The position numbers were made by a program, and so were the translations under genes. Below the pieces are notes generated by a model that was given only the letters and a program-made list of their open reading frames with translations, searched no databases and was not told the DNA's origin. Below, piece after piece: positions 33,615 to 34,660 of a DNA stretch of 64,000 nt (the first letter of the stretch is position 1; every line of letters begins with the position of its first letter). Where the stretch lies: NCBI RefSeq assembly GCF_004010195.1, contig NC_057758.1:5904150-5968149 (forward strand), written 5' to 3'. The DNA comes from Chiloscyllium plagiosum. Lineage: Eukaryota.

Positions 33615-33725
33615 CTGTGCTGACTCCTCCTCCTCCTCCTGTCTCCTTTTCCCATCTTCAGTCTCCACCAGCCTCTGTTTGGTTTGGAGGAGCTCCTTAT
33701 TGAGGACATCAGCCTTGTCTGCAAC
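33615..33725 (-). pseudogene. RABGAP1L: Orphan RABGAP1L-like exon (C-terminal coiled coil); splice donor mutated
   Basis: CAG acceptor, then [37 protein letters not shown], versus recalled vertebrate [35 protein letters not shown]. The following bases are GGCAGG rather than GT. Confidence 0.8.
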
Positions 33726-33943
33726 CTGAGTGGGCAAGATGGACACAGTGTGAGGGACCGAGCAGAGGATTCCCTCCAAGCCTCCGGACAGTACGATTGG
33801 ACACTCGGGCACTCTTTCCCAATTTCAGGGGGCTGGGGAGGAGGGGACAACTTCTCGCTCTGGAGATAGAACTGCATTCAATTGCCCAGCTTCTAGCCAC
33901 CCTGTCAATGAGCACACCCTGCAGTCTAACTGATCAAACACAT

Positions 33944-34140
33944 GATGTGGAGGTGTCAGTATTCGCCTGTGTTTGATGAAAGTTAAAAATCTATGACACA
34001 TTGATCTTTTAGTATAAATTCTGTGTCCTAGGATCCTGCTCCACTAGTTCCCTGACAAAGGAGCAGTGCTCCGAAAGCTTGTACTTTCAAATAAACCTGT
34101 TGGATTATAACCTGGTGTTGTGTGATTTTTAACTTTGATA
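33944..34140. mobile_element. Penelope-derived fold-back remnant (third family) with decayed hammerhead core at 34052-34080
   Basis: CTGACAA-A-GGAGC-AGT-GCTCC-GAAAGCTT; inverted arms AAAGTTAAAAATC / GATTTTTAACTTT. Confidence 0.6.
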
Positions 34141-34179
34141 ACACACAGGCCTTTCTGTTGGGATATATAGCATGACCAG

Positions 34180-34560
34180 CCTGGGCTCTCTGCTTCCAAC
34201 CAGAATGTTGTAGGTTCAAGTCCCGTGTCAGAGATTTGAGAATGGTGTTGAACTCTGACAGTGTGGCGTACACAGTGAGGGGAATGCGGCACTGTCACAC
34301 AGACTGATTTTTGGATGACATTAATCCTGCAGGCCCCCTGCCCTCTCAGACGAGTGGGAATCTTGTCCTGGGATAATTTGGAAGGGTAGAGAAGGTCTCC
34401 ACTTGCTGAGTGTCAGTTGCTTCCCCAGTCCAACCCCCAGCCCCCGTACCTTTCCCATGTTACAACCGTGGCGATATTTCAAAAAGACTGAAGCTGCTGA
34501 AAACCAATTTTGTGACACCCGGAAGTTGTGAAAGTGCTACACAAATGCAAGGTTGTCTTT
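34180..34560 (+). mobile_element. Deu-domain (SacSINE1-like) SINE
   Basis: B box GGTTCAAGTCC; Deu-like GAGGGGAATGCGGCACTGTC...TTTTGGATGA; tail GTGAAAGTGCTACACAAATGCAAG. Confidence 0.6.
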
Positions 34561-34608
34561 CGATTTGGGATTTTGGATCAGAGGGTGAAGAGCAGTGATA
34601 TCCCTTAC

Positions 34609-34660
34609 CTGATCCAGATCACTTCTGAAGTGCTCTTGCAGCTCATAAAGTCATGAGCCA
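34609..34660 (-). pseudogene. RABGAP1L: Remnant of the preceding RABGAP1L-like exon (frameshifted, 5' part lost)
   Basis: Minus strand AHDFMSCK-(8 nt, -1 shift)-RSDLDQ|GTAAG, versus recalled AHELVTSKIALRNDLDQ. Order and phase (0) fit the 33615-33725 exon. Confidence 0.65.

Follow-up and report, generated by a model that had tools for sequence, protein, structure and literature searches.

A disabled partial copy of RABGAP1L beside a shark immunoglobulin kappa minicluster points to a likely kappa–RABGAP1L neighbourhood in galeomorph sharks

We analyzed a stretch of 64,000 nucleotides of the Chiloscyllium plagiosum genome (contig NC_057758.1, positions 5,904,150 to 5,968,149; hereafter, the window), the features of which are collected in Table 1. 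The window contains a shark immunoglobulin kappa minicluster of the NS4/type III kind, composed of a V segment followed by a 12-spacer recombination signal, a 23-spacer signal followed by a J segment, and a kappa-type C exon. The C-kappa exon is 98% identical to a C. punctatum kappa model and 91% identical to a nurse shark light chain. As far as the accessible text of PMC2193156 goes, the nurse shark NS4 and horn shark type III kappa clusters likewise have a split V-J-C arrangement with 12/23 signals, and kappa miniclusters expanded independently in each lineage; that part of the paper gives no flanking genes or chromosome for these clusters.

Four of 24 listed sequencing runs were compared with 29650–37150 at 85% likeness. 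X1 is DNA of the same species, X10 comes from a related species (species B), and X11, which has no recorded type, was treated as RNA because its contigs include a loose end at the J-to-C splice and end in poly(A); X22, a raw RNA run, contributed no reads. At positions 30057 and 30060 within C-kappa, all X1 and X11 contigs placed there differ from the window, which may reflect errors of assembly or bases specific to this kappa copy. The kappa 3′ UTR includes a short tandem-like repeat (30271–30425) of very high depth in both species. The LINE-type repeat farther downstream belongs to a family that we take to be CR1. Elsewhere in the window, we observed a dispersed family of ~37-nt repeat units (44700–49750 and 60300–60530) and an inverted repeat of 79 nt at 54340–54511, the arms of which are 95% complementary and enclose a 14-nt loop. 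Two proteins that are 79–85% identical to shark C-kappa, filed as Aeromonas and Salmonella on contigs of 0.5–1 kb (P0340, P0341), probably represent contamination or mislabelling.

Table 1. Features of the kappa minicluster, the RABGAP1L fragment and their surroundings (positions are those of the window)
Feature	Positions	Strand	Remarks
V-kappa segment, V-set domain	22337..22624	plus	
12-spacer recombination signal, after V	22625..22652	plus	perfect
23-spacer recombination signal, before J	23138..23176	minus	perfect
J-kappa segment with donor	23177..23211	plus	
C-kappa exon	29786..30114	plus	J-C splice loose end in run X11
Kappa 3′ UTR	30115..30734	plus	AATAAA at 30714; poly(A) loose end at 30734
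Unspliced RNA contigs	30685..34087	not given by the contigs	X11; five pieces with gaps, 0–1 differences each
High-copy LINE-type repeat between C-kappa and fragment	31315..32233	plus	
Dead exon B donor	33613..33614	minus	GG where GT is needed
RABGAP1L exon B remnant	33615..33725	minus	111 nt, open; parent residues 850–884
Fragment intron	33726..34608	minus	883 nt, GT..AG, phase 0
RABGAP1L exon A remnant	34609..34679	minus	exon for parent residues 813–849, 3′ two-thirds; frameshifted
Moderately repeated DNA beside exon A	34700..36700		X1 depth 130–2,700

Facing the minicluster on the opposite strand, with the C-kappa stop 3,501 nt away, lie remnants of two RABGAP1L exons, designated A and B. 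An earlier reading made from the sequence only had described two minus-strand exon remnants in the right order and phase around an intron of ~880 bp, as well as a frameshift, a GAG (Glu) expansion and a dead donor, and our analysis bears out each of these elements. Exon B differs from its parent by two replacements and by a Glu run of five codons instead of three, a two-codon expansion. Exon A is alignable from 34679 to 34609, slightly past the edge at 34660 drawn previously. Its 3′ end consists of six exact RABGAP1L codons followed by a strong GTAAG donor, with a single frameshift just upstream of the six codons. In frameshift-aware scoring, exon A reached 41, as compared with 24 ± 3 (maximum 35) for 60 shuffles; this was the best score for that exon in the window but only narrowly, the runner-up reaching 40, a margin that makes the score by itself weak evidence. 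The identity of exon A is secured by the six exact codons plus GT at the right place: this match occurs once in the window, against a chance expectation of 1.7e-4, or of 7e-6 within the 5 kb upstream of exon B. Upstream of the exon A donor, at exactly 111 nt, lies a possible acceptor; it has a poor pyrimidine tract and was given no weight. The intron contains a very high-copy repeat with an edge at ~34137, as judged from depth and loose ends. Neither tblastn nor frameshift-aware scoring placed any further RABGAP1L exon above background in the whole 64 kb.

The fragment derives from RABGAP1L rather than from its relative RABGAP1. Exon B matched C. punctatum RABGAP1L with a tblastn E value of 2e-12, and a query of exon B plus short flanking sequence returned 249 matches; among the 120 listed, nearly all of the named ones were RABGAP1L. 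Compared over 35 residues that leave out its Glu expansion, exon B agrees with Chiloscyllium and Hemiscyllium RABGAP1L at 33/35, the highest value among all sequence types compared, with other cartilaginous-fish RABGAP1L at 30–32/35, and with named RABGAP1 sequences at only 22–24/35. In a tree of 25 rows and 35 columns, exon B fell inside the RABGAP1L clade with support of 97/98; the same columns gave no useful resolution within RABGAP1L. The identity proposed from sequence inspection thus stands. The parent model, the best full-length match, scored 626 bits against human RABGAP1L (3HZJ) and 589 bits against RABGAP1 (4NC6). A PDB search with exon B itself gave 0 matches.

Open reading frames of other animals that read through from the intron (P0002, P0003, P0030 and P0223) begin to match at the same residue after Gln, indicating that the start of exon B is a boundary conserved in position and phase. 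Retention of an intron at such a conserved boundary speaks against an origin from mature mRNA, and a processed (retro) pseudogene was rejected since the exons are still separated by their GT..AG intron. With the boundary judged from these read-through frames, duplication at the DNA level would be the simplest reading, in agreement with the earlier proposal. The first residue of exon B is Val in 5/5 carpet sharks and in 0/11 other cartilaginous fishes; Val is one base away from Ile, and as a date mark it is suggestive only.

The two exons have not decayed evenly. Replacements affect 5/14 codons in exon A versus 2/35 in exon B (Fisher p 0.015), a disparity that is poorly explained by one recent event. 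The fragment has the properties of an unprocessed pseudogene in that it retains its intron, carries a frameshift and a dead donor, represents an incomplete gene, and has an intact parent elsewhere; the intact counterpart exons are annotated in the RABGAP1L models of both C. punctatum and C. plagiosum. It is disabled and is best classed as a partial unprocessed pseudogene of RABGAP1L, and as such belongs to a known type. Unprocessed partial pseudogenes can arise by segmental duplication in tandem gene arrays. The fragment resembles these in the intron at the parental boundary, the frameshift, the dead splice site, and the likely presence of the intact parent in the same chromosome region. It differs from the usual array pseudogenes in comprising only two internal coiled-coil exons, in the uneven decay of these exons, and in being hosted by an array of immunoglobulin miniclusters.

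We compared the abundance of the fragment with that of C-kappa using the placed contigs. In X1, locus-specific contigs had a depth of 12.6–16.9, and one of 747 nt spanned exon A and its donor unbroken at a depth of 15.5. The summed depth was 5,254 and 7,783 in the C-kappa bins, 39.8 in the exon B bin, and 27.8 and 29 in the intron/exon A bins. Expressed in single-locus units, C-kappa amounted to ~340–500 and the fragment to ~2–3; such summed depth is not copy number, overlaps inflate it, and copies less than 85% alike are missed, but the fragment lies 130- to 280-fold below C-kappa in X1, with a similar contrast in X10, and a gap of more than 100-fold is hard to explain away. The C-kappa depth corresponds, as a rough reading, to well over a hundred copies in both the same species and species B, exceeding the 50 estimated for the nurse shark. 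The kappa 3′ flanks are dissimilar among clusters beyond ~30,800, so that much older sister fragments would escape the 85% cut-off. Orthologous pieces of the fragment in species B are ~96–98% identical, and the fragment thus predates the split from that species; a search for near-identical DNA listed only two close species, and no RNA set, as carriers. The fragment is likely young and likely near-single-copy. The suggestion of an ancient fossil was not supported, exon B being almost identical to the bamboo-shark protein.

Part of the fragment is covered by RNA. The unspliced X11 contigs extend from the kappa 3′ UTR over exon B and end inside the intron, with a depth of 20–40 versus ~60,000 on C-kappa. 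No X11 contigs were present over 34168–34669, leaving zero depth on exon A. For splicing, the X11 joints covered numbered 15 of 2,600. The likely source of the unspliced contigs is low-level transcription of the kappa gene that reads through exon B; if this RNA is plus-strand, it would be antisense to RABGAP1L mRNA. Two overlapping X11 contigs imply that a 46-nt stretch of exon B (33653–33698), which has a known replacement at one border and a third codon position at the other, is common to another transcript. This transcript is likely the parent mRNA, in which case exon B would be nearly identical to its parent even at silent sites. The fragment most likely does nothing, with no protein made from it.

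In other sharks, the intact RABGAP1L gene is linked with kappa. We considered sharks for which both kappa and RABGAP1L models were listed on a chromosome-scale contig. In 6/6 such sharks, all galeomorphs, the two kinds of model lie on contigs of identical size. These sharks span four orders. The shared contigs and the accessions that they carry are as follows: C. punctatum, 135,915,806 (kappa XP_072429386-446, RABGAP1L 451-455; nearest gap between kappa and RABGAP1L accessions, 5); Hemiscyllium ocellatum, 116,467,424 (kappa XP_060686023-026, RABGAP1L 033-040; nearest gap, 7); Heterodontus francisci, 137,194,213 (nearest gap, 1); Cetorhinus maximus, 105,773,345 (RABGAP1L XP_078417905, kappa 907-908; nearest gap, 2); Stegostoma tigrinum, 104,074,451 (accession numbers ~500 apart); and Scyliorhinus torazame, 323,493,442 (accession numbers ~1,100 apart). 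Thus, RABGAP1L and kappa share a chromosome in six galeomorph sharks. The synteny hinted at in the sequence-only reading holds at the level of the intact gene, and probably not through the fragment as a passenger of the kappa clusters. Three kappa models on short scaffolds (P0123, P0132 and P0147) were uninformative for linkage, and a short-length kappa C search for further species gave 4 matches and no new species, adding to the comparison none of the rays, chimaeras, squalomorphs, white shark, S. canicula, whale shark or C. plagiosum.

Accession order roughly, if imperfectly, follows gene order. With accession numbers 1–7 apart in 4/6 sharks, RABGAP1L likely adjoins the kappa array directly; accession order serves here only as a proxy for position, since the two halves of C. 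plagiosum RABGAP1L have accessions ~1,490 apart. In C. maximus, the shared contig bears only a C-terminal RABGAP1L model, the N-terminal part being on a 761-kb scaffold. In H. francisci, RABGAP1L occurs in pieces among the kappa models, as one C-terminal part (P0181) and two near-identical N-terminal copies (P0162, P0158), in the accession order kappa XP_067894067 and 095, RABGAP1L C-terminal 096 and N-terminal 192, kappa 199 and 202, and second N-terminal 217. H. ocellatum has a separate 307-aa C-terminal RABGAP1L model (XP_060686033) beside its kappa models. Duplicated parts of RABGAP1L may contain kappa clusters or be interspersed with them, or these arrangements may be assembly artefacts. 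Unless the horn and epaulette shark models are such artefacts, they suggest that partial copying of RABGAP1L beside kappa clusters recurs. Within a literature coverage that is incomplete and leaves key papers outside, we found no report of RABGAP1L–kappa linkage, and the combination of RABGAP1L, immunoglobulin and shark gave 0 papers.

Given the shared chromosome and the adjacent accessions, the fragment is best interpreted as a partial duplicate, made locally, of the gene next door. In our preferred explanation, the fragment is probably a DNA-level partial copy of the intact RABGAP1L gene, which likely adjoins the kappa array on the same chromosome. A few kb of the adjoining RABGAP1L gene would have been introduced next to this single cluster by unequal crossing-over or by repair, within the duplicating and repeat-rich array or at its edge. 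The copying would have occurred within the carpet-shark lineage, and the copy would later have decayed while its intron gained a repeat. The duplication at the array edge could also be older, dating to the early galeomorphs or before. In that case, gene conversion by the parent close by would subsequently have renewed exon B, and other clusters may be accompanied by sister fragments that have diverged. We regard this as rather unlikely. It would accommodate the significantly greater decay of exon A, the apparent absence of any 31-mer shared between the parent and the unbroken 747-nt contig, which comprises exon A and half of the intron, and the identical 46-nt stretch that the X11 contig breaks appear to imply within exon B; the dissimilar flanks would also hide old passengers below the 85% cut-off. 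However, there is no sign of sister copies; the exon B bin leaves room for about two or three loci, parent included, and the listed carriers are two close species, though the search finds near-identical DNA only.

According to the sequence-only reading, the fragment may have been part of the amplified unit, hence would mark many kappa clusters; that reading further proposed that the site could mark the founding cluster and bear on the origin of antigen receptors. Its position 3.5 kb behind C-kappa and the partial RABGAP1L models among the horn shark kappa models are in keeping with this idea, which the near single-locus depth of the fragment, set against a several-hundred-fold C-kappa, nevertheless renders highly improbable. 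Kappa genes are numerous, with ~50 NS4 genes in the nurse shark (in the accessible part of PMC2193156) and at least 11 accessions in C. punctatum, and a hitchhiking fragment would be expected at comparable abundance. Capture by a DNA transposon, or by a retroelement together with unspliced RNA, draws on the moderately repeated DNA that abuts exon A and on a nearby frame (35543–35860) that a language model, on the basis of 167 shared features, scores at 0.93 as piggyBac-like. A 93%-identical copy is present in X11. We consider such a capture improbable: the piggyBac-type transposase match is a lead only, Pfam gave nothing at the curated cut-off in 85 frames of 32240–37180, a PDB search with the frame gave a single match (E 0.69), the opposite flank showed no matching element end, and the fragment does not occur in many copies. 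A search of Rfam on 29000–37200 gave one chance match. It is extremely improbable that the fragment is an assembly artefact or a damaged view of a real gene. The window does contain gaps of N, and several shark annotations divide RABGAP1L into parts, but contigs obtained independently from DNA and RNA agree with the locus at 0–2 differences, species B has the orthologue, and the intact exons are annotated for both Chiloscyllium species.

The chromosomal setting of this neighbourhood can be compared with the paralogous regions of the MHC. Human RABGAP1L lies at 1q25, and rc3h2 is a neighbour of RABGAP1 in human. Human 1q and 9q are MHC-paralogous regions according to the accessible part of PMC1578592, and the portion of the PMC10751288 supplement available to us places lungfish RABGAP1 on the paralogon-9 chromosome. 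In the white shark, RABGAP1L is assigned to a contig of 123.5 Mb, and the models listed included no kappa for this species. The same portion of that supplement gives 137.5 Mb for white shark chr15 and assigns para-1 to chr16, with brdt at 102 Mb. The 123.5-Mb contig is consistent with para-1 chr16 without establishing it. The link with RABGAP1L would put shark kappa, in all likelihood, on the human-1q MHC paralogon. In the published model, to the extent that PMC10751288 and PMC12227049 are accessible, only para-9/12/14 gave rise to rearranging receptors; para-14 carries IgH, TCR alpha/delta and part of the light chains, and para-9 carries lambda. Term searches in the available text of these two papers did not find the location of shark kappa, and the terms searched in the elephant shark and VGP supplements gave no kappa coordinates. 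The accessible parts of PMC7677710, PMC8423624, PMC13320880, bioRxiv 10.64898/2026.03.23.713620 and the PMC3964593 supplement contained nothing relevant. Within this incomplete literature coverage, a placement of shark kappa on the 1q paralogon was not found in print.

The lambda locus of Callorhinchus milii, on the human-chr9 paralogon, is likewise a light-chain locus on an MHC-paralogous chromosome of a cartilaginous fish (PMC10751288 and PMC12227049, accessible parts). It differs in the paralogon concerned, and the available rows of PMC10751288 put lambda at 2.9 Mb versus rc3h2 at 24.6 Mb. An arrangement in which lambda would adjoin RABGAP1 as kappa adjoins RABGAP1L is unsupported, lambda and rc3h2 being ~22 Mb apart in these C. 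milii rows. Tetrapod Ig kappa, of the same isotype, is flanked by RPIA/EIF2AK3 and has a translocon layout (PMC4762898, as far as accessible). The available text of PMC5985310 assigns gar kappa-like V genes to chromosome 28 and unplaced fragments, and the available rows of the PMC10751288 supplement include a lungfish kappa entry near psmb6. These different settings in tetrapods, gar and lungfish indicate that kappa moved more than once, and the position of tetrapod kappa beside RPIA/EIF2AK3 makes a secondary move likelier than an ancestral site for shark kappa. We therefore find it quite unlikely that the kappa–RABGAP1L neighbourhood is ancestral for jawed vertebrates. If it were, kappa on paralogon 1 and lambda on paralogon 9 would be relics of genome duplication, a light-chain-type V-J-C ancestor would be older than the current model permits, and bony-vertebrate kappa would have moved away later.

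The fragment is ordinary debris, and its value is that of a pointer to the kappa–RABGAP1L neighbourhood. The apparent occurrence of this neighbourhood in sharks of four orders provides a fixed address for the major light chain of sharks, likely on the human-1q MHC paralogon. If chimaeras, rays and squalomorphs share it, the address would be at least as old as the cartilaginous fishes; otherwise, it would date a translocation. The findings also suggest that the expansion of a light-chain array repeatedly copies pieces of a neighbouring gene.
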